Positions 7,821-61,447 are shown, counted from the stretch's first letter. The stretch is DNA of 64,000 nt from Nanobdellota archaeon (GCA_014239585.1 JAAZYP010000001.1:111421-175420), one strand, 5' to 3'. Notes: generated by a model from the sequence alone, not told the origin. Numbers and translations: made by a program.

Positions 7821-7894
7821 TGGTCCAGGCAGGATTTGAACCTGCGACCTCACGATTATCAGTCGTGCGCGCTACCAGACTACGCCACTGGACC
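7821..7894 (-). tRNA. tRNA-Ile (anticodon GAT)
   Basis: Reverse complement folds as a cloverleaf: acceptor GGUCCAG/CUGGACC, anticodon stem CACGA/UCGUG with loop CUGAUAA, T-arm GCAGG-UUCAAAU-CCUGC. Confidence 0.9.
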
Positions 7895-32342: not shown

Positions 32343-32876
32343 ATGACCTCGGGAATTAGAGCAATAGATATTATGAGTCATAAAGTTGTTACAGCAAATA
32401 CAAATATGACTATTTTTGAAGCAGCCAAATTAATGAATAAACATCGGATCGGCGGATTACCCGTTTGTGACGGTGACGAATTATTAGGATTATTAACTGA
32501 ACGAGATATTATGATGAAAGTTATCGCAGCAGATAAACATCCTTCAAAAACAACAGTCAAACAAGTTATGAATTCGCCGTTAAAGGCACATGCACAAAAA
32601 TTTGAAGATATTTCTGAACTTGCTCGAAAAATGAATGAACACGATATTTCCAGAGTTCCGATATTACATGAAGGAAAGTTAGTCGGAATTGTTACAAACA
32701 AAGATATACTGGAACACGCACCTCACTTACTTGAAACGTTTTTAGAGAGAGGACGAATATCTGCAAAAGGTAAACCTGAACATCCTGAAGCATTCGGAGT
32801 CTGCGAGATGTGTAATTTATCGGGACATTTACATTATAGTTCAAATAATGGATTTATTTGTGATGAATGTTTATAA
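32343..32876 (+). CDS. CBS-pair domain protein with C-terminal zinc ribbon
   Basis: Two CBS motifs (HRIGGLPVCD, ISRVPILHEGKLVGIVTNKD) plus C-terminal CEMC...CDEC. Confidence 0.7.
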   Translation: MTSGIRAIDIMSHKVVTANTNMTIFEAAKLMNKHRIGGLPVCDGDELLGLLTERDIMMKVIAADKHPSKTTVKQVMNSPLKAHAQKFEDISELARKMNEHDISRVPILHEGKLVGIVTNKDILEHAPHLLETFLERGRISAKGKPEHPEAFGVCEMCNLSGHLHYSSNNGFICDECL

Positions 32877-33614
32877 CACATTAATTAAATTTCTTAATCC
32901 TTGCGCCAGACCCAATACAAAAATAGATATAATAATTAATTTAGATAATTTTGATTTATCCCCATTTAGATAATAAATTACAGGAATAATAATAATCAAT
33001 TTTGCAGGTATAAACGCTAAAGGTGTTCCAAAAAAATCAATTACTGCACGCGGAATAACATGTTTTTCAAATCCACCAAAGAATAACAGAATAAATCCCG
33101 TGTTTAATGCATCAAATAATTGTGCAGTTAAAGCATAATTTGAAATTTTTGAAAAATTTAATGATTTTGTCCAACTTAATAATAATTTTGAAGCAAAAAT
33201 TGTTAATACTAAAATAAAAATCAAGTATGATTTAATTGAGAAACTAATACCATAAATTAATAAAAAAGAAATTAATGAAAGTAGACCTAATTCTTTCAAT
33301 TTACCGAATAATAGTCCGATCATGAATAATGAAGCCAAAGTTAGATATAATCCTGGGCTAACTGTAAAAAATGTCTTTTCAATTAAACCTTTATCAACAT
33401 AAGATCTCATTAATGCACCAAATATAATGTAAGGTACAAGATTTCTAACAAAAATTATATCCAATTTTATTTTTTTATGTTTGATAAAATACTTGATAAA
33501 ATAAATCCCTAAAAATGCAAATAACCCATAAGTAATAGTATTAACTAAATTATATTCATATATTCCGTTGAAAGGTAAAATAAAATATTTATTTAGAAGT
33601 TCTAGAAATGCCAT
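32871..33614 (-). CDS. polytopic membrane protein (DUF63-like?)
   Basis: 247 aa, 7-8 TM helices. Confidence 0.5.
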   Translation of the reverse strand: MAFLELLNKYFILPFNGIYEYNLVNTITYGLFAFLGIYFIKYFIKHKKIKLDIIFVRNLVPYIIFGALMRSYVDKGLIEKTFFTVSPGLYLTLASLFMIGLLFGKLKELGLLSLISFLLIYGISFSIKSYLIFILVLTIFASKLLLSWTKSLNFSKISNYALTAQLFDALNTGFILLFFGGFEKHVIPRAVIDFFGTPLAFIPAKLIIIIPVIYYLNGDKSKLSKLIIISIFVLGLAQGLRNLINVL

Positions 33615-34045
33615 CCTTCATCCTCGTCTTTTTGAGTTGTTGGCGCAGGAGAAGTTTGTTCTTGAGTTTGTTGTTGTGGCGATTGATAAGGATTAAATTG
33701 TGGTTGAGTCGGTTGCGACTGAACTTGTACTGGTTTTGCCGTAGTAGAATGTTTTTGTTCAAGCGAATTAACTCGCTGAGATAATCCATCTAAACTAGAT
33801 TTCATAGTTTCTACTTTTGAAACCAATAAATTCAAAGTTGATTGAATGGAACTTAATTGAGAATTATTTTCAGTCACCGGATTGGATACAGGCATAGTTG
33901 GGCTAGAGTGTTCTGGAGTCATAATCGGTTCGGAATCAAAAGATGGTCCAGGCACAGAAGATGTTCTTGATCCCAAAGAATCACCAAATTCAGGAAAATC
34001 TTCTTTATTTTTTTTTAAAGGATTTAGTTTATCAAAAATAGCCAT
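33602..34045 (-). CDS. coiled-coil protein with Q/P/T-rich low-complexity tail
   Basis: 147 aa; stop overlaps the downstream membrane gene by 13 nt. A coiled-coil heptad segment is followed by a Q/P/T-rich tail. Confidence 0.45.
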   Translation of the reverse strand: MAIFDKLNPLKKNKEDFPEFGDSLGSRTSSVPGPSFDSEPIMTPEHSSPTMPVSNPVTENNSQLSSIQSTLNLLVSKVETMKSSLDGLSQRVNSLEQKHSTTAKPVQVQSQPTQPQFNPYQSPQQQTQEQTSPAPTTQKDEDEGWHF

Positions 34046-34104: not shown

Positions 34105-35562
34105 TTGAATGGAATTATGATTATGTCAGATCATCCTCTCGGTAAAGCTGTGTTCGAAACCGAAATTCATTACGAAAATTTTCAAGAAGGTATTGAAAAA
34201 TTTTATTTTACGGTTATAGATATAGTTGAAAACAGTTTAGGATATGAAATAAATAAAACTGAAGATCAATTTTTGACATCACCCGGTTCCGCACAATGGC
34301 AAGTTTTTGAGCAACGAAAAGCTGCTCAACAAGAAAAAGCCGCTCAATATCTTGCAAATATTGGTCGAATGACTAAAGATATGATGGTACTTTATCGCGA
34401 ATTAAAGATTCAGGATGAAAGATTGGGATTTTATAAAAAATCAAATGACGGTGATAAAGCTGCAGAAATTTCACTGAAAACACTGTATGTTGATCTTGTT
34501 CAAGGTGGTGCTAAAGATCCATCATCAGTCTTAGGTTTAGCTCAACATGTCGGATTTGTAACATTACCTGATTTATTTTTCAAGTTGGATATCAAAAAAG
34601 AAGAGGATATAGATAAAATTGTGGAAAAGGTTGAAACAAATACTCAAGTTAAGAACGTATTAAAGCGAGAATTATTCAAATATGCGCGGTGGCGGAATAG
34701 AACATACGATGAGCTGACCACACGTAGACATTTCAATATAAAGTATTTGGCTCAACATTTTAATGTCATCAAAATGTATTTAGAATGGGCAAAACCATAT
34801 TTACATAACGTAACTAACTTAACTCAAAATAGTAAAAATGAAAAATCATATCAAATTTTACAAACTTCAGAAAGTTCAATATCCGATATTGAAGTTGTAT
34901 GTAAGCGTAAAAAAATTGATGCTGCAAAGGATTTTGAATATATTTTTCCAATAATTACAGTTACATTTCATCATCGAACTCGTCCAGTTATGGCATATCA
35001 GGGACAGGAATACAGTAAGGGCGCAATTCAATTAGGGCGAATTGAATGTGAAATGAAAGGATTTAATCTAACTGAAACTGAATATAAGAATTATCTTGAT
35101 AAGAAGGAAAAGGATATACTTGAACTCTTATCTTCAGTCGATGAATCGATGAAAGTATTTTTGAATGATTCCAATTCGAAAAAAGATTTTGAGGCATATT
35201 TAGCAGAAGCACGTGAAGAAAACAAAGCTGACAAAGATAAAACCAAAAAATCAGGATCAATTTTAGATATGTTTCGATTCGGAGGCAAGAAAAAATCAAA
35301 AACTAAAGAAAAATCAGATTATACACCATTTATTGATGATTATCGAAAAGAAGATAAAAAAGCAGATAAAATTAAAAAAGAAGTAACTAGTTTTATAATT
35401 TCAAAACTTCGTAAAAAACATAAATTATCGTTAGTTAAATCTGAAAAAATTTTAAAAAAATATAATGAAGACAAGGCATTATCTAAAAATTCAGTTAAAA
35501 GTAATTTAGAAGTTCTATATGATATTATAAAAATAAATTATGGAATGATTCGAAATGAGTAG
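34105..35562 (+). CDS. hypothetical protein, first gene of 4-gene plus-strand operon
   Basis: 485 aa, no recognisable motif; stop overlaps the next ORF by 8 nt. Confidence 0.55.
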   Translation: MNGIMIMSDHPLGKAVFETEIHYENFQEGIEKFYFTVIDIVENSLGYEINKTEDQFLTSPGSAQWQVFEQRKAAQQEKAAQYLANIGRMTKDMMVLYRELKIQDERLGFYKKSNDGDKAAEISLKTLYVDLVQGGAKDPSSVLGLAQHVGFVTLPDLFFKLDIKKEEDIDKIVEKVETNTQVKNVLKRELFKYARWRNRTYDELTTRRHFNIKYLAQHFNVIKMYLEWAKPYLHNVTNLTQNSKNEKSYQILQTSESSISDIEVVCKRKKIDAAKDFEYIFPIITVTFHHRTRPVMAYQGQEYSKGAIQLGRIECEMKGFNLTETEYKNYLDKKEKDILELLSSVDESMKVFLNDSNSKKDFEAYLAEAREENKADKDKTKKSGSILDMFRFGGKKKSKTKEKSDYTPFIDDYRKEDKKADKIKKEVTSFIISKLRKKHKLSLVKSEKILKKYNEDKALSKNSVKSNLEVLYDIIKINYGMIRNE

Positions 35563-36013
35563 ATTTTTAGAATTAAAAAAACAATTAACTTTACTTGACC
35601 CATTTATTCGGTTGAAGCGAATAAAGGAAATTTTAGTTCATGTAAAATCAAAAAAAGCGCGTAAAGAATTGATTGATCTTGCAAGAATTGCAATATATCA
35701 ACTAAATCGAGTAAGAGAAGGAGAAGAACGTTCAAGTTTAGATTCAAAAATTACTGAAAATATATCTGATGATAAATTATCTGCAAAAATTGAACGAACG
35801 ATTGAAGAAATTGCTGAAGAAGAAAGTACATTAATTCAAAAATCTGAAGATCAAGAAATGAAAGGTCATGATTCACAAAAAAATGAATCTCCTGAAAATA
35901 TATATGGTCTAAATTCAAAAACTGATTCAGACGATTTTTATAAATCTACGAAATCAGATACATTTTATGCGTCTCCCGAAGAGGATAAAAAGGAGAAACG
36001 ATTATATTTCTAA
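35555..36013 (+). CDS. hypothetical acidic protein
   Basis: 152 aa; its stop abuts the ATG of the next gene with no gap. Confidence 0.45.
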   Translation: MSRFLELKKQLTLLDPFIRLKRIKEILVHVKSKKARKELIDLARIAIYQLNRVREGEERSSLDSKITENISDDKLSAKIERTIEEIAEEESTLIQKSEDQEMKGHDSQKNESPENIYGLNSKTDSDDFYKSTKSDTFYASPEEDKKEKRLYF

Positions 36014-37885
36014 ATGGGCGAAAATTGTCACGATCATGATACGCCAGAAATACCTGGATACTGGCATTCAATGGATAGCAATCCAAGTCAATATACTGGA
36101 GATAAATTTTCAGCAGGACAATTATCGATTTCCACACCTCCATTCAAAAATCAATTAGATAGTATTCGTACTCGAATTATGCAAGGTGCAACTAATGTTG
36201 AACTTGGTTTTACTGGAACTGGAAAAGGAACGGGTCAAAATTTAACTCCGGGAACACTGGGAATTCCCGAACGTATTGCAATTAAGGAGATTGCAAAAAT
36301 TAACGATGTTGGAATTAACTCAGTTCATTCTGCAATGAGTATACAAGGATTAGCAGGTTTTTCTCAAAATCAATTTAGTGAAGAAAAACGAGCAACTGAT
36401 ATAGAAGAAGTTAAGCGAACAATAGATTTTGCATCAGATGTTACTGATGGGGGTGCAATAGTTGTACATACGGGAGAGTTTCCATATAGCGTTAAACGAA
36501 AATACGGTGATAAGTTATTTACAACAAAAGACGGCAAAAAAATTGAATTATCTGAAGAGTTAGGAAGAGCAGAAACATATCCAATTCTTTTTGTAGATAA
36601 ATATGATGGAAACGTTTCAGGTGGAGTAAGACCGAATTGGACTAGTTTTAGTTTTGACGAAAAAGGTAAAGAACACACTATTAATTTAGATGATATGGAA
36701 AAACTTGCAAAATTTAATTTGGAAAAATATTCTGATAAAAATTTTATAGAAAAAAGTATCGATACATTTGGTAAACATTTGTCAGATAAACGAAAGAAAG
36801 AAATATATGAAAATAAAGAAGGATATGAAAAAACATTAGGAAATAAATATTGGTTAGCACAAGCACATGATTTAGATATATCTTCTAAAGAATCTGAGGC
36901 TAGGCGAGAAGAATATACGTTACGTGTAAATGAAGCTGCCGACAGATTAACTAAATTACATTCAGACATTGAAGCCAGAAAAAAAATAAAGAAAAATATT
37001 CCTAAAAATCGTTTTATTCCACACGATATTTCTGAAGTAAAAATTTCAGAATTGGAAGAAGATTATAAGAAATTATCATATCAGCAAAAACTTGATGAAA
37101 TGCATCGTCAAAGTTATACTTTAGCTCAAGCCGAGAAAGAAAAAAAGATATTTGATATGATTCCGATTGAAGATTATGGTAAACAACAAACTTCGAAATC
37201 TATTGCTGAATTAGCAATACATGCTCAAAAAATGACAAAAGAAAAAAACCTTAAAAAACCATTATTTGTTGCACCAGAAAATTTATGGGGAGGCGAATAT
37301 GGTGCTCACCCTGAAGATTTAAAACAGATAATAAATAATGCGCGATCACAGTTTGTTAAAAATGTGACTGATAACAAAACTATGTCTGAAAATGAAGCAA
37401 AAATTGCAGCAAAAGATCATATTAAAGCAACATTCGATATAGGTCATGCAAATATTTGGAGAAAATATTTTGGTGGGAATGATAACGAGTTCAAACAATG
37501 GTTGGGAAATGAAGTGAATAAACTAACAAAAGAAGGAATTATTGGGCATGTTCATGTTTCAGATAATTTCGGATATAATGATGAACATTTACCTCCAGGC
37601 TATGGTAATGCACCGATAAAGGAATTTATGACTCATTTGGAAAAGGGAAAATATAAAGGTGAAATAATTATCGAACCCGGACATCATGATATTCAATCCT
37701 ATAATTTGGGAATGAAACATTTAGAAACACCTATATATCGGATTCACAATAAGACCAGTACTTGGACAGATGTTGCAGGGTCTTATTTTGGAAAATCTCA
37801 TACTTATGGGTATATTACACCCCAATATCTTCCATCGCAAGATAAAAATCAAGCTTTTACTTGGTCAGAACTTCCATTGGAGTGA
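36014..37885 (+). CDS. xylose-isomerase-like TIM-barrel (AP-endonuclease-2/EndoIV family) protein with ~340-aa coiled-coil insertion
   Basis: Family motifs in order: SVHSAMS, AIVVHTGEF, then after a long coiled-coil insert FVAPENLWG (catalytic E of the lENt motif), FDIGHANIW (DxxH), GHVHVSDNFGYNDEHLPPGYGNAPI (HxxD...DxHLxPGxG), IIIEPGH (final E). Confidence 0.6.
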   Translation: MGENCHDHDTPEIPGYWHSMDSNPSQYTGDKFSAGQLSISTPPFKNQLDSIRTRIMQGATNVELGFTGTGKGTGQNLTPGTLGIPERIAIKEIAKINDVGINSVHSAMSIQGLAGFSQNQFSEEKRATDIEEVKRTIDFASDVTDGGAIVVHTGEFPYSVKRKYGDKLFTTKDGKKIELSEELGRAETYPILFVDKYDGNVSGGVRPNWTSFSFDEKGKEHTINLDDMEKLAKFNLEKYSDKNFIEKSIDTFGKHLSDKRKKEIYENKEGYEKTLGNKYWLAQAHDLDISSKESEARREEYTLRVNEAADRLTKLHSDIEARKKIKKNIPKNRFIPHDISEVKISELEEDYKKLSYQQKLDEMHRQSYTLAQAEKEKKIFDMIPIEDYGKQQTSKSIAELAIHAQKMTKEKNLKKPLFVAPENLWGGEYGAHPEDLKQIINNARSQFVKNVTDNKTMSENEAKIAAKDHIKATFDIGHANIWRKYFGGNDNEFKQWLGNEVNKLTKEGIIGHVHVSDNFGYNDEHLPPGYGNAPIKEFMTHLEKGKYKGEIIIEPGHHDIQSYNLGMKHLETPIYRIHNKTSTWTDVAGSYFGKSHTYGYITPQYLPSQDKNQAFTWSELPLE

Positions 37886-37916
37886 GCCAAAACTATTTAT
37901 ATTCTGAACTGAATAA

Positions 37917-38726
37917 TTGATTATGCGGTTTAGAGTTAATAAACGTAAGGTAAATTTTGAGTCAAAATATCCTAAACAAGACAGAGATTTAGCAAAGAAA
38001 TTTAGCAAATTAATATATAGTGAATTAGGCGATTTTATTAGCGCAGTGGTGTTATTTGGTTCTGCAGCAAAAGGAACATCAAAAAAGGAAAGTGATGTTG
38101 ATATTCTAATTATCATCGATGATGTACACATCGATTTATCAAAAGAAATAGTCGAAACATACAGAATTTTAATACAAAAAGCAGTTGCAAAAGTAAATCC
38201 AAAAAGACTTCATGTTCAATCATTAAAATTAACTGCATTTTGGGAATATACTCGTGCAGGAGATCCAGTAGCGATTAATATACTTCGAGATGGAATTGCA
38301 TTTATTGACAGAGGATTTTTTGAACCACTCCAGTTATTATTGTTGAATGGCCGGATCAGACCATCTCAGGAATCTGTTCAAACTTACATAAATATGGCAT
38401 TTTCTAGTTTAAATCGCAGTAAATCTGGAATAGATAGTGCAATTGTGGATCTATATTGGGCATGTATTGATTCAGCACATGCTGCATTAATGAGTCGAGG
38501 AGAAGTTCCAGTTTCACCAGCTCAAGTTGCAGATGAATTAGATAAAAAATTAGTTAAGAACAAACTCTTGGAAAAAAGATATGTTGATATTATGAGTCAT
38601 ATGTATGAATTATCCAAAAAACTTTTACGACGAGATATATCGAATCTATCAGGAAAAGATTACGATAAATATCTAAAATATACTGATGATTTTGTCAGTC
38701 GAATGACTAAAATAATCAAGTCTTAA
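37917..38726 (+). CDS. KNTase-like nucleotidyltransferase (Pol-beta superfamily NTase + helical HEPN-like C-domain)
   Basis: FGSAAKGTSKKESDVDILIIIDD = hG[GS]x(n)[DE]h[DE]h NTase signature. The C-terminal helical domain has R-x6-H (RYVDIMSH); 31 bp downstream of the TIM-barrel gene, same strand. Confidence 0.65.
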   Translation: MIMRFRVNKRKVNFESKYPKQDRDLAKKFSKLIYSELGDFISAVVLFGSAAKGTSKKESDVDILIIIDDVHIDLSKEIVETYRILIQKAVAKVNPKRLHVQSLKLTAFWEYTRAGDPVAINILRDGIAFIDRGFFEPLQLLLLNGRIRPSQESVQTYINMAFSSLNRSKSGIDSAIVDLYWACIDSAHAALMSRGEVPVSPAQVADELDKKLVKNKLLEKRYVDIMSHMYELSKKLLRRDISNLSGKDYDKYLKYTDDFVSRMTKIIKS

Positions 38727-39292
38727 AGACCGTGATTCAATAAGATCGTATAGGGTGTATTTGCCAATGCAGCTAAATCTGCCCGTAAATTATATTGTCT
38801 ATGTGCTCTATCTGTTAGAACACTTAATTGATTAGCAATTTGATCTCTTTCATCGGGTGTCGCAGTAGTATGATATTCATTAATATGATCTTGAACTGTA
38901 AGTAACATATCGGATCGATTTAAATTTAAAATTTGATCTGTGTTAATTCTTTGAGCTAAACCTTTTCCGTTCGATAATGCAAATGAAGCTATTCTTTCTC
39001 GTCTTGTTCGAGTATCATCAAATAATTGATCTGTACCAACTTGATACATTTGACCAATCATCGCTCGCATCGTGGATTCAACATGTGCATCTACTGCACC
39101 GTAGTCTACACCAAATCTATTATTCGCAATTCGCGCATTAAGCGTATCGATTGTAGTTGAAACATGATTGTGTGTTCTGGGCGCTACAGTTGTGAAATCT
39201 CTGATTAATCTTGTGAAATGATCATCCAACGTAGTTGTATCTTCATCTCTAATTCTTTGTGTGGTATCCAACATAAAGTTTGGTAGTGCCAT
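38723..39292 (-). CDS. hypothetical lysine-free protein (1 Lys, 0 Cys, 0 Trp in 189 aa)
   Basis: Uninterrupted 189-codon ORF with host-like AT-rich codons but composition dominated by T/R/D/N/A/L/H/Q. Convergent with the upstream NTase (4-nt overlap), divergent from the downstream NTase. Confidence 0.5.
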   Translation of the reverse strand: MALPNFMLDTTQRIRDEDTTTLDDHFTRLIRDFTTVAPRTHNHVSTTIDTLNARIANNRFGVDYGAVDAHVESTMRAMIGQMYQVGTDQLFDDTRTRRERIASFALSNGKGLAQRINTDQILNLNRSDMLLTVQDHINEYHTTATPDERDQIANQLSVLTDRAHRQYNLRADLAALANTPYTILLNHGL

Positions 39293-39383
39293 AATCCCCT
39301 CATTAATATTTTGTTTATAAGTGTTTCGTTTTCTTTAGATATGCCTGAGAAACCTTTAAATTAATGAAAAAACGACATACAAT

Positions 39384-41192
39384 ATGAGTGAACAAAATTT
39401 GCCTTCAGATAATGAAAAATTGAAAAAAATGTTTAATAAATTTCAGAAAGAAGACACGTCTAAAGTACTTGATGAAATGAATGCTAAATTAGATTCAGTT
39501 CAAAAGAAAGCTGAAAAAGTTAGAGACTCATTAATTAAAAGACATAAGGATGAAATTTTAGGTACAATTTTAGTTTACAAAAAAACTAAGGAAAATAATG
39601 TTCCCAGATTATTAGTAATCTCGGATATTAAAAAGAAAAATAATAAATTAAAAATTGAACATATTTTGAAAATTGAAAAGGAAGGAAATGCATTATCGAA
39701 AAATGATTTCAAAGTATCCTCCTATTTACTGGAAGAAATTTGGGATTCTGCAGCACGCGGACAGTACGGATTACTTCAAAGCATAGTCTCGGGAAGAATA
39801 TTATATGATCGAGGAGATTGGATCAAATCACTAAAGGCAGTAGAACTTCATAAATTCAGAATGCTTAGAAAATTTGAAAAATATGTTATTTCATATGTTA
39901 TTGCGGGGTCATTAATTCGAGGTGAAGCAAATGAAAATTCAGATGTTGATGTTTCATTAATTATCGATGATACTGATGTTACTCGAACTACTTCTGCAGA
40001 ATTAAAAGCTAGATTGAGAGATATTGCGTTGAAAGAAGCAAGAGATGCAGAACGTGATGCCGGAATTAAAGGAAAGTTAAATGTTCAAGTATGGATTTTA
40101 ACTGATTATTGGATGGGGTTAAGACGTGCTGAACCGATATTTTATACAACTTTGAGAGACGGAATTTCATTATATGATCGGGGAATGTTTGCACCATGGA
40201 AATTAATGCTTAAGAAAGGTATGTTGATTCCGAGTCCAGAATCAATTCGAAGATATATTGATGACGGTAAAAAACATGTGGAACGATTTAATTATAAGTT
40301 TAAATCAATGGCCATGGAAGATTTTTTTTGGGCGTGTATTTATCCAGCTCAAGGTTTATTAATGCTTCAAGGTATTCCGCCCGGTGCACCGAGTCAAGTT
40401 GCACCTCAGATGAAAGCAAATTTAGTAAAAAAAGGCATTTTGGATATTAAATATGTTAAAATTTTTGAGAAGTTACATAAAATTCGTAAAGATTTAGAAT
40501 ATGGTAAAATAAAATCAGTTTCTCCTGAAGAAATTGTGAATATGGCAAGATCTGCACAAGCGTTTGTTGAAGCGGTAGAAAAAGCTTACAATTCTTTAGA
40601 AAAGCGTAAAGTAAAATCTAAAATTGATGAACTAAAAGATCGAACAAAAAAAGATGTTAAGTTAGTGTTGAAAGTTGCAGGGATTAAATCAAATAAGAAA
40701 AATGTGCGTTCCGCACTTCAGAGTGAACTGATAGATAAAGGTCTTGCACGATCAAAATATACTGAATTAATTGAAAAACTAGAGGGATTAGATAAAGAAT
40801 TAACTCCCTTATCCATGATGGATAGTTTAGAATATAATTTGGATACAATTAGAGATGAAACAATAAATATCATAAATTCTGAAAAAGGATTGAATAAAGA
40901 TAAACATCGTTTGACATTAAAATATGGCGCGAAAGATAAACAAAAAATCGCATCAATTTGGCTGTTAAAGAGTATGGCATTTATGATTAAAGATTTATCA
41001 AATCAACAAGCACCAGTTTACAAATATTCCTTCGACGGTACAGGTAGACTATTCGATGAACAAAAATCTTCATTAAAAGTTCTTGAAAATAAACTTGCAA
41101 CTTATTCTGGAGGAAAGGCTAGAATTACTGCAAAAACAATAAATCAATTAAAGGAAATGTTAGATAAAAATTTGCAATTATTAATTGGCTAA
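39384..41192 (+). CDS. KNTase-like nucleotidyltransferase paralog with N- and C-terminal coiled-coil extensions
   Basis: IAGSLIRGEANENSDVDVSLIIDD NTase signature at about residue 175. The core aligns with the 269-aa paralog (LRDGISLYDRGMFAP vs LRDGIAFIDRGFFEP; FWACIYPAQGLLMLQGIPPGAPSQVAPQM vs YWACIDSAHAALMSRGEVPVSPAQVADEL). Confidence 0.65.
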   Translation: MSEQNLPSDNEKLKKMFNKFQKEDTSKVLDEMNAKLDSVQKKAEKVRDSLIKRHKDEILGTILVYKKTKENNVPRLLVISDIKKKNNKLKIEHILKIEKEGNALSKNDFKVSSYLLEEIWDSAARGQYGLLQSIVSGRILYDRGDWIKSLKAVELHKFRMLRKFEKYVISYVIAGSLIRGEANENSDVDVSLIIDDTDVTRTTSAELKARLRDIALKEARDAERDAGIKGKLNVQVWILTDYWMGLRRAEPIFYTTLRDGISLYDRGMFAPWKLMLKKGMLIPSPESIRRYIDDGKKHVERFNYKFKSMAMEDFFWACIYPAQGLLMLQGIPPGAPSQVAPQMKANLVKKGILDIKYVKIFEKLHKIRKDLEYGKIKSVSPEEIVNMARSAQAFVEAVEKAYNSLEKRKVKSKIDELKDRTKKDVKLVLKVAGIKSNKKNVRSALQSELIDKGLARSKYTELIEKLEGLDKELTPLSMMDSLEYNLDTIRDETINIINSEKGLNKDKHRLTLKYGAKDKQKIASIWLLKSMAFMIKDLSNQQAPVYKYSFDGTGRLFDEQKSSLKVLENKLATYSGGKARITAKTINQLKEMLDKNLQLLIG

Positions 41193-61336: not shown

Positions 61337-61447
61337 GCCTCGGTAGCTCAGTTTGGTAGAGCGCTGCATTGGTAACGCAAAGAATCCTTCGCGGATTGGC
61401 TTGCGCCAATAATGCAGAGGCCGCGAGTTCAAATCCCGCCTGGGGCA
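61337..61447 (+). tRNA. tRNA-Thr (anticodon GGT) with 37-nt intron at canonical 37/38 position
   Basis: Acceptor GCCUCGG/CUGGGGC (two G-U pairs), D-arm AGCUCAGUUUGGUAGAGC, anticodon stem CUGCA...UGCAG interrupted by intron 61375..61411, T-loop UUCAAAU. Confidence 0.7.

Follow-up and report, generated by a model that had tools for sequence, protein, structure and literature searches.

Do two neighboring nucleotidyltransferase (NTase) genes in a Nanobdellota archaeon constitute a toxin-antitoxin or AMPylation module, or do they encode housekeeping enzymes? The genes lie between positions 37,917 and 41,192 of a 64,000-nucleotide stretch of archaeal DNA with a GC content of 31% (GCA_014239585.1, JAAZYP010000001.1:111421-175420), which as a whole is called the window here. 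Its gene content and best matches assign it to the Woesearchaeota/"DHVE6" part of the Nanoarchaeota. An earlier note on this DNA had described their products as paralogous NTases fused to a HEPN-like helical domain, one of them with coiled-coil extensions, and had likened them to toxin-antitoxin modules. Both open reading frames (ORFs) that it named exist, and on balance we favor the housekeeping alternative. The two genes are as follows.

37917-38726 (+): short NTase gene, 269 amino acids (aa) from TTG 37917, probably 267 aa from ATG 37923 (PF01909 match, AlphaFold model)
39384-41192 (+): long NTase gene, 602 aa (ORF call, homologs of ~600 aa, AlphaFold model)

The products are indeed paralogs, as BLASTP aligned residues 40 to 269 of the short form with residues 167 to 404 of the long form at 32% identity over 238 aa (E = 2e-33). 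The NTase signature ascribed to both was likewise found, as GS-x9-SDVDI in the short form and GS-x9-SDVDV in the long form, in each case inside a match to PF01909 that scored 38.5 bits for the short form and a borderline 20.8 bits, just below the cut-off of 21, for the long form. Pfam scans of homologs took in 37 short and 47 long members, and PF01909 was matched at E ≤ 1 by 37/37 and 46/47 of them, respectively. Motif residues were counted in 118 short-form and 112 long-form sequences. G48-S49, D60xD62, and D68-D69 of the short form were invariant or nearly so (S49 in 116/118), as were G175-S176, D187xD189, and D196xD198 (DDxD) of the long form. Consistent with an NTase core, the MNT-only model PDC-S09 of PADLOC matched residues 23 to 128 of the short form (E = 2e-12). 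We conclude from these residues that each protein carries an intact putative GS...DxD hairpin for binding metal and NTP and is predicted to be catalytically competent.

The predicted structures gave the same picture. AlphaFold models of the two proteins had pLDDT (predicted local distance difference test) values of 85.4 for the short form and 85.1 for the long form, and Foldseek searches against the PDB retrieved HalB (E = 4e-6), ANT(9), AadA, ANT(4'), LinB, and MNT-HEPN complexes, in agreement with the resemblance to kanamycin and lincosamide nucleotidyltransferases proposed earlier. TM-scores to 1kny, 6nmk, 5lpa, and 6xz0, which share the two-domain fold of an NTase followed by a helical domain, were 0.51 to 0.54. 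The short form is divided into two domains, and its 42 invariant residues are spread across both.

37959-38321 (+): short form, catalytic MNT-type NTase domain, ~aa 15-135 (invariant motifs, PDC-S09, Foldseek)
38322-38723 (+): short form, HEPN-fold domain, ~aa 136-269, with an invariant GRIRPS linker and a DLYWAxIDxAHAALM block (Foldseek, invariant columns)

The helical motif reported to be shared by the two C-terminal domains is present and lies in a strongly conserved block (YWACI...GEVPVSPAQVA and FWACI...GIPPGAPSQVA). When the predicted C-terminal domain was compared with the HEPN protein AF_0298 (2hsb) in Foldseek, the target-normalized TM-score was 0.82 and the root mean square deviation was 2.3 Å. 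Homologs carry the JGI label UPF0332, and weak matches to HEPN models of Pfam were found in 7 and in 3 of the 47 long members. The likeness to HEPN proteins thus holds for the fold but does not extend to the catalytic Rx4-6H motif, which is variable in both families. In the short family, Ser, Phe, or Tyr occupies the Arg position and His is present in 77/118 sequences; in the long family, R368 was found in 69/112 and H373 in 68/112 sequences, and the window protein itself has Tyr373. Nor is the R/K-x6-H element that had suggested a HEPN relationship conserved, as His228 is present in only 42/118 short forms and His365 in 28/112 long forms. We conclude from the residue counts that R368-x4-H373 of the long form is a relic and not a conserved RNase site and that the HEPN-fold domain, being without the RNase dyad, is predicted to be inert.

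The extensions of the 602-aa protein were not the coiled coils expected from the earlier note; they comprise an NTase domain that has degenerated, a second and incomplete set of HEPN helices, and a domain rich in beta structure.

39456-39818 (+): long form, N-terminal degenerate (dead) NTase domain, ~aa 25-145 (hhalign, secondary structure)
39819-40193 (+): long form, active NTase domain, ~aa 146-270 (hhalign, 99.2% against the short NTase domain)
40194-40679 (+): long form, HEPN-fold domain, ~aa 271-432 (hhalign, 99.8% against the short C-terminal domain)
40680-40907 (+): long form, partial repeat of the last HEPN-like helices, ~aa 433-508 (hhalign)
40908-41189 (+): long form, C-terminal beta-rich domain, ~aa 509-602 (secondary structure)

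The dead domain aligned with the active domain of the same protein at an hhalign probability of 97.4% (E = 1e-11) and with the NTase domain of the short form at 95.6%, and the order of secondary-structure elements in residues ~25 to 145 repeats that of an NTase domain. It has lost GS and DxD and retained W and LYDRG, with ENNVPRLLVISD aligned to ENSDVDVSLIID, such that LYDRG occurs twice in the long form, at residues 140 to 144 and 263 to 267. Residues 433 to 508 aligned with the HEPN-like domain of the long form itself at 95.0% (E = 3.6e-8) and with that of the short form at 89.8%. The beta-rich domain is conserved in position and only weakly in sequence, and no PDB or Pfam relative was found when it was searched as a separate profile. 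Together the extra domains total ~330 residues, and their conservation, which the earlier note had singled out as a check, was borne out by the N*-N-H-H*-beta layout being present in 47/47 aligned homologs.

Enzymes of the KNTase type are dimers in which the NTase domain of each subunit completes an active site together with the partner's helical domain. Because of that architecture and the order of its domains, the long form looks to us like a KNTase-type pseudo-dimer, in which one chain takes the place of two subunits and only one site is live. If so, it would be the first single-chain pseudo-dimeric enzyme of the KNTase fold, with one live and one dead site, and the scaffold would be one that is able to evolve into such a form. 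The domain architecture of the long form is new; its fold class is known.

Both families are widespread and old. Database homologs of the short form numbered 1237, at 50 to 69% identity, across Woesearchaeota, Pacearchaeota, and Nanoarchaeota, with relatives in at least 568 species-representative genomes. The long form was found at no fewer than 556 metagenome loci, and its length of ~600 aa is kept across Woesearchaeota and Pacearchaeota. When a neighbor-joining tree of the shared core was rooted at its midpoint, the 31 sequences of the short form and the 29 of the long form separated cleanly, with 24 to 35% identity between the two clades, at least 48% within the short clade, and at least 40% within the long clade. 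The clean split indicates that the duplication is older than the sampled radiation.

Rates of change were compared with those of the RNA polymerase (RNAP) subunits RpoA' and RpoA'' and of other proteins encoded nearby, using related loci L005 and L006.

Short NTase: 88.8% identity to L005, 69.7% to L006
Long NTase: 85.7% to L005, 55% to L006
RpoA': 88.5% to L005, 70% to L006
RpoA'': 90.8% to L005, 71% to L006
485-aa protein: 65% to L005, 47% to L006
623-aa protein: 65% to L005, 47% to L006
189-aa ORF: 54% to the L005 copy; none detected in L006

By this comparison the short form evolves as slowly as RpoA' and RpoA''. Such RNAP-grade conservation is the reverse of the pattern seen in toxin-antitoxin, defense, and resistance genes. 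Searches of PHROGs and BFVD returned nothing specific, and any resemblance to defense, phage, or viral proteins was confined to the generic NTase core. The result is an enzyme pair that is conserved like RNA polymerase but limited to this lineage, and no description of this NTase family was found in the literature. Woesearchaeota and Pacearchaeota are described as having a specific module of 51 families, most of them without annotation (Castelle et al. 2021), and the NTase genes may be part of it.

The genes around the pair in the window are listed below. The short NTase gene and the block of genes upstream of it abut or overlap one another.

33602-34045 (-): 147-aa protein (ORF call)
34105-35562 (+): 485-aa Nanoarchaeota-specific protein, first gene of the block (ORF call; upstream of the short NTase gene at other loci)
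35555-36013 (+): 152-aa acidic helical protein, weakly conserved, member of the conserved block (overlaps or abuts its neighbors)
36014-37885 (+): 623-aa xylose-isomerase-like/AP-endonuclease-2 TIM-barrel protein (PF01261)
38723-39292 (-): convergent 189-aa acidic ORF with a single lysine (composition and codon-position GC)
Next after the long NTase gene, convergent: NusA-KH, L30e, RpoA'', and RpoA' genes

Gene neighborhoods were counted at 81 loci centered on the short gene, with the testable loci as denominators. The most constant neighbor was the 623-aa TIM-barrel gene, upstream on the same strand at 48/64 loci (31 of them within 400 bp), followed by the 485-aa gene, upstream at 42/57 loci. 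The long gene lay directly downstream of the short gene at 10/59 loci, and among loci centered on the long gene the short gene was upstream at 8/54. The duplicated, flanking arrangement pointed out in the earlier note is thus found at a minority of loci. The gene for ribosomal protein L35Ae was downstream of the long gene at 16/75 loci (directly, within 400 bp, at 7); at L084, L085, L086, and L092 to L100, all from Woesearchaeota or Pacearchaeota, it follows on the same strand after 2 to 110 bp. In the clade of the window the convergent NusA-L30e-RpoA'' genes stand in place of the L35Ae link, and rpoA'' was present in 7/49 short-gene loci. Neither linkage was general: L35Ae as a universal companion of the long form was ruled out by the count of 16/75, and synteny with an RNAP operon was ruled out as a general feature because it is limited to one subclade.

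A protein of ~180 aa that combines a CBS pair with a Zn ribbon at its C terminus is encoded after the long NTase gene on the same strand at 25 loci (within L102-L166), with a median gap of ~200 bp. Its homolog in the window lies at 32343-32876 (+), ~5 kb upstream of the short NTase gene and beside a gene for a DUF63 membrane protein. Overall, the neighborhoods consist of informational and core genes, including those for ribosomal proteins, RNAP subunits, TFIIB, and Trm1, and contain no defense islands. PADLOC found no defense matches among the neighbors; what it did match was the NTase core, and only with MNT-only models.

The phylum-wide spread, the RNAP-grade conservation, and the informational neighbors point to housekeeping NTases. 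We think it somewhat more probable than its opposite that the two proteins are an ancient paralogous pair of catalytically competent MNT-plus-HEPN ("KNTase") NTases that are vertically inherited core genes of Woesearchaeota, Pacearchaeota, and Nanoarchaeota and not a mobile toxin-antitoxin, defense, or resistance module. The earlier note had set its proposal against membership in a known housekeeping family with conserved synteny beside RNAP operons: the housekeeping behavior was found, but a known housekeeping family was not, and adjacency to RNAP genes is specific to one clade. On the favored reading, a scaffold that elsewhere serves mostly in toxin-antitoxin, defense, and resistance systems was recruited here for a stable housekeeping role, and annotation pipelines should not automatically take an NTase-plus-HEPN pair for a toxin-antitoxin module. 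The genomes of Woesearchaeota and Pacearchaeota are tiny and rich in proteins of unknown function, and the NTase pair offers an assayable way into their core biology.

The neighboring proteins may bear on what the pair does. The 623-aa protein matched PF01261 (E = 3e-16), its barrel being split by a helical insertion of ~250 aa, and its closest solved relative is MJ1311 (3wqo; E = 2e-10), a predicted endonuclease IV (Endo IV) homolog of Methanocaldococcus jannaschii (PMC2770678). Residues H105, H152, E422, D475, H478, H514, D523, H525, and E554 of the barrel are invariant. The last seven of these align with metal ligands of Escherichia coli Nfo in hhalign, at a nonsignificant probability of 0.2%. 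H105 and H152 were matched by eye to Nfo H69 and H109 and may correspond to the remaining two of the nine presumed ligands of the trinuclear Endo IV metal site. The barrel also matches D-tagatose 3-epimerase and 3-keto-glucoside epimerase (E ~1e-3). An Endo IV-like activity of the 623-aa protein is thus a lead only. For the 485-aa protein, no relative was found in a PDB profile search or in Pfam (22 members), and all matches in a profile search of 5.8 billion proteins were hypothetical proteins of Nanoarchaeota. The 485-, 152-, and 147-aa proteins had no relatives outside the phylum and none in Pfam or the PDB. More broadly, scans with Pfam, NCBIfam, PADLOC, and PHROGs took in all seven proteins of the cluster and found no domain beyond the NTase and the TIM barrel. 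As a separate observation, the 147-, 485-, and 152-aa proteins have conserved aromatic C termini (...GWHF, ...GMLxW, and ...YF), which may be a shared docking motif.

In the mechanism that we propose for the housekeeping pair, Mg2+-NTP would be bound by the hairpin, as in ANT(4'), AadA, MntA, and HalB; an acceptor hydroxyl would be held in the cleft between the NTase and helical domains; and a nucleoside monophosphate would be transferred to it. The short form would probably work as a KNTase-like homodimer, the long form would imitate such a homodimer in one chain with one live active site, and the beta domain would recruit a substrate or partner. Of all parts of the proposal the identity of the acceptor is the least certain. 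We favor a macromolecular hydroxyl over a small molecule because of the invariant residues spread over both domains of the short form, the extra domains of the long form, the possibly Endo IV-like partner, and the precedents of HalB and MntA. HalB carries out Tyr-primed synthesis of poly-dA as a homotetramer (PMC13434031), and MntA AMPylates HepT (title of PDB entry 7ae9). The leading candidate, put forward with the same low certainty, might be the 3'-OH of a nucleic acid that the TIM-barrel protein generates or cleans up, with a protein tyrosine as the alternative. A further step, which we consider doubtful, is that the two NTases join with the 485-aa protein and the TIM barrel (possibly Endo IV-like) in an essential machine specific to Nanoarchaeota that would nucleotidylate a macromolecular end, through either processing or repair of nucleic-acid 3' ends or protein-primed oligonucleotide synthesis. 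If it existed, such a machine would have no described counterpart in other archaea.

Several observations weigh against the housekeeping pair as proposed or against parts of it. In the beta3 strand, where ANT enzymes hold a catalytic Glu or Asp, the short form would have His99/Gln101 and the long form Asn/Gln235, a position that was placed from secondary structure and not from structural superposition. The chemistry may therefore differ, and the invariant D68/D69, E110, and D131 of the short form are candidate substitutes for the third catalytic carboxylate. When the PDB was searched by sequence and by profile, starting from each protein and from each family alignment, the only matches were of ~30 residues at the hairpin. 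The geometry of the homodimer and the pseudo-dimer follows from domain order and not from coordinates. The Endo IV reading of the barrel is countered by its hhalign probability and by hidden Markov model matches that favor sugar epimerases over Endo IV. Since the adjacency of the short and long genes is clade-specific, the paralogs need not act together, and in streamlined genomes genes may keep their order without being functionally coupled. Finally, the short gene may have a TATA-like element of its own. The TATA-like sequence ATTTATAT lies at 37895-37902, ~21 nucleotides upstream of ATG 37923; because of this element and because homologs begin with MKF or MRF, ATG 37923 is likelier to be the start than TTG 37917. 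The short NTase thus probably starts at ATG 37923, possibly on a leaderless transcript.

One alternative is that the pair are small-molecule O-nucleotidyltransferases of the ANT/Lnu type, acting on an aminoglycoside- or sugar-like metabolite or an antibiotic, with the TIM barrel as a sugar isomerase or epimerase of the same pathway. The epimerase matches of the barrel are consistent with that view, as is the whole-chain fold, which is like that of ANT(9), AadA, ANT(4'), and LinB. In particular, ANT(4') and ANT(9)/AadA share with both window proteins an N-terminal Pol-beta/MNT-type NTase domain followed by a helical HEPN-like domain of ~130 aa, the GS...DxD hairpin, and a TM-score of ~0.53. Identity to them, however, is only 10 to 16%, and the family cut-offs were missed tenfold or more, roughly, with scores of 29.9 against 340 bits for ANT(9), 12.5 against 350 for ANT(4')-I, and 17.5 against 375 for AadA. 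Moreover, resistance enzymes are sporadic and mobile, whereas the window proteins are universal in the phylum and conserved to the grade of RNAP, and the position of the ANT catalytic base is apparently occupied by His/Gln or Asn/Gln. The invariant residues over both domains and the additional residues of the long form suggest large interaction surfaces, and the partner proteins are themselves large and carry long helical insertions. We know of no ANT enzyme with the single-chain pseudo-dimer layout of the long paralog. The small-molecule alternative is therefore improbable.

A second alternative is that the pair performs protein-primed, template-independent oligonucleotide synthesis like that of HalB, producing a constitutive nucleotide signal that is read by a partner such as the CBS-pair/Zn-ribbon protein or the 485-aa protein. 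Among solved structures, HalB, of the Hailong anti-phage system (9dbh, 9dbi, and 9dbj), gave the best match in sequence (E = 2e-4) as well as in fold; both domains are collinear, and a W...G-x-I-x-x-S-P stretch is shared in the helical domain. HalB primes on a tyrosine of its own, and the short form has invariant tyrosines (Tyr82, Tyr111, Tyr157, and Tyr180) that would be candidates for such a role. The CBS-pair gene follows the long gene at the 25 loci described above and is also present in the wider cluster of the window. CBS pairs are typical sensors of adenine nucleotides. The HalB score, however, was 23.3 bits against a cut-off of 190, with identity at ~20% and the sequence match mainly in the hairpin. 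No HalA-like membrane effector is adjacent in the window, no membrane protein adjoins the genes at related loci, and the context is one of housekeeping and not of defense. We give this alternative little credence. NTases of the DUF294 type (COG2905) are fused to CBS and cyclic nucleoside monophosphate-binding domains. The window proteins resemble them in weak but recurrent matches to PF03445 (10/37 short and 15/47 long members), and their coupling of an NTase and a helical substrate-binding domain to a CBS pair has a parallel in the CBS-pair gene beside the long form. They differ in that the matches are far below significance and the CBS domain of the window belongs to a separate Zn-ribbon protein.

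It is very improbable that the pair replaces a universal RNA 3'-end NTase, for example, by maturing tRNAs as a split system of one CC-adding and one A-adding enzyme. Of the six tRNA genes in the window, five do not encode CCA; two paralogous NTases are what split CCA systems contain; and the long form sits among ribosomal genes with L35Ae often following. No member, however, had a match to PF09249 or to the domains that mark CCA enzymes (neck, body, and tail), and the L35Ae linkage is missing from most loci. Canonical CCA1 and CCA2 are reported in groups that also carry the NTase pair: a 2026 preprint names as the working enzymes those of canonical class 1 in DPANN and those of class 2 in a clade of Pacearchaeota.

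Least credible of all is the original proposal of a fused and duplicated MNT-HEPN toxin-antitoxin/AMPylation module (type VII-like) or anti-phage module in which the NTase silences a HEPN RNase by AMPylation, as its MNT-type core (PDC-S09 as above; MntA as the top NCBIfam match, E = 1e-7), its HEPN fold, and the relic R-x4-H, with R368 and H373 each in ~60% of long forms, are outweighed by MntA equivalog scores of 31.8 (short) and 20.1 bits (long) against a cut-off of 60, by a dyad that is absent from the short family and not invariant in the long family, by phylum-wide distribution at an RNAP-like rate of change, and by informational neighbors, none of which matches a defense model. Compared with MntA-HepT itself, which shares the MNT-type core and the HEPN fold and whose R-x4-H has a partial relic in the long family, the window proteins have both domains fused in one chain and are neither patchy in distribution nor present in multiple copies; a toxin role is implausible given their conservation. 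The comparison with MNT/HEPN and ANT profiles that the earlier note had called for therefore succeeded at the level of the fold but not at that of the families, as the cut-offs for MntA, ANT(9), ANT(4'), and HalB were all missed.

The protein between the two NTase genes, said earlier to be free of lysine, is nearly but not fully so, with 1 Lys in 189 residues, or 0.5% lysine compared with 10 to 14% in adjacent genes. GAGGGG lies just 5' of its ATG, and GC at the three codon positions is 0.47/0.40/0.21, which is typical of coding sequence. A search of 1.84 billion representative proteins yielded only 5 matches, of which one is probably compositional. We conclude from composition and search results that the ORF is a real gene and a fast-evolving ORFan. 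A spurious frame over a GC-rich RNA gene was ruled out by the coding-type GC and by there being no Rfam match, and membership in a conserved family was ruled out by the few matches and by the convergent ORFs of other clades, which are not detectably homologous. Lysine-poor convergent ORFs also lie downstream of the short NTase gene at L021 (1 Lys in 149 residues), L072 (2 in 103), and L005 (3 in 188); convergent ORFs at most loci have ordinary lysine content.

The six tRNA genes of the window are at 7821, 13986, 50460, 54632, 57099, and 61337, and a 3' CCA is encoded for tRNA-Asp only. The last of them, at 61337-61447 (+), is a tRNA match of 111 nucleotides that was found by Rfam and not called by ARAGORN and is probably an intron-containing tRNA gene.

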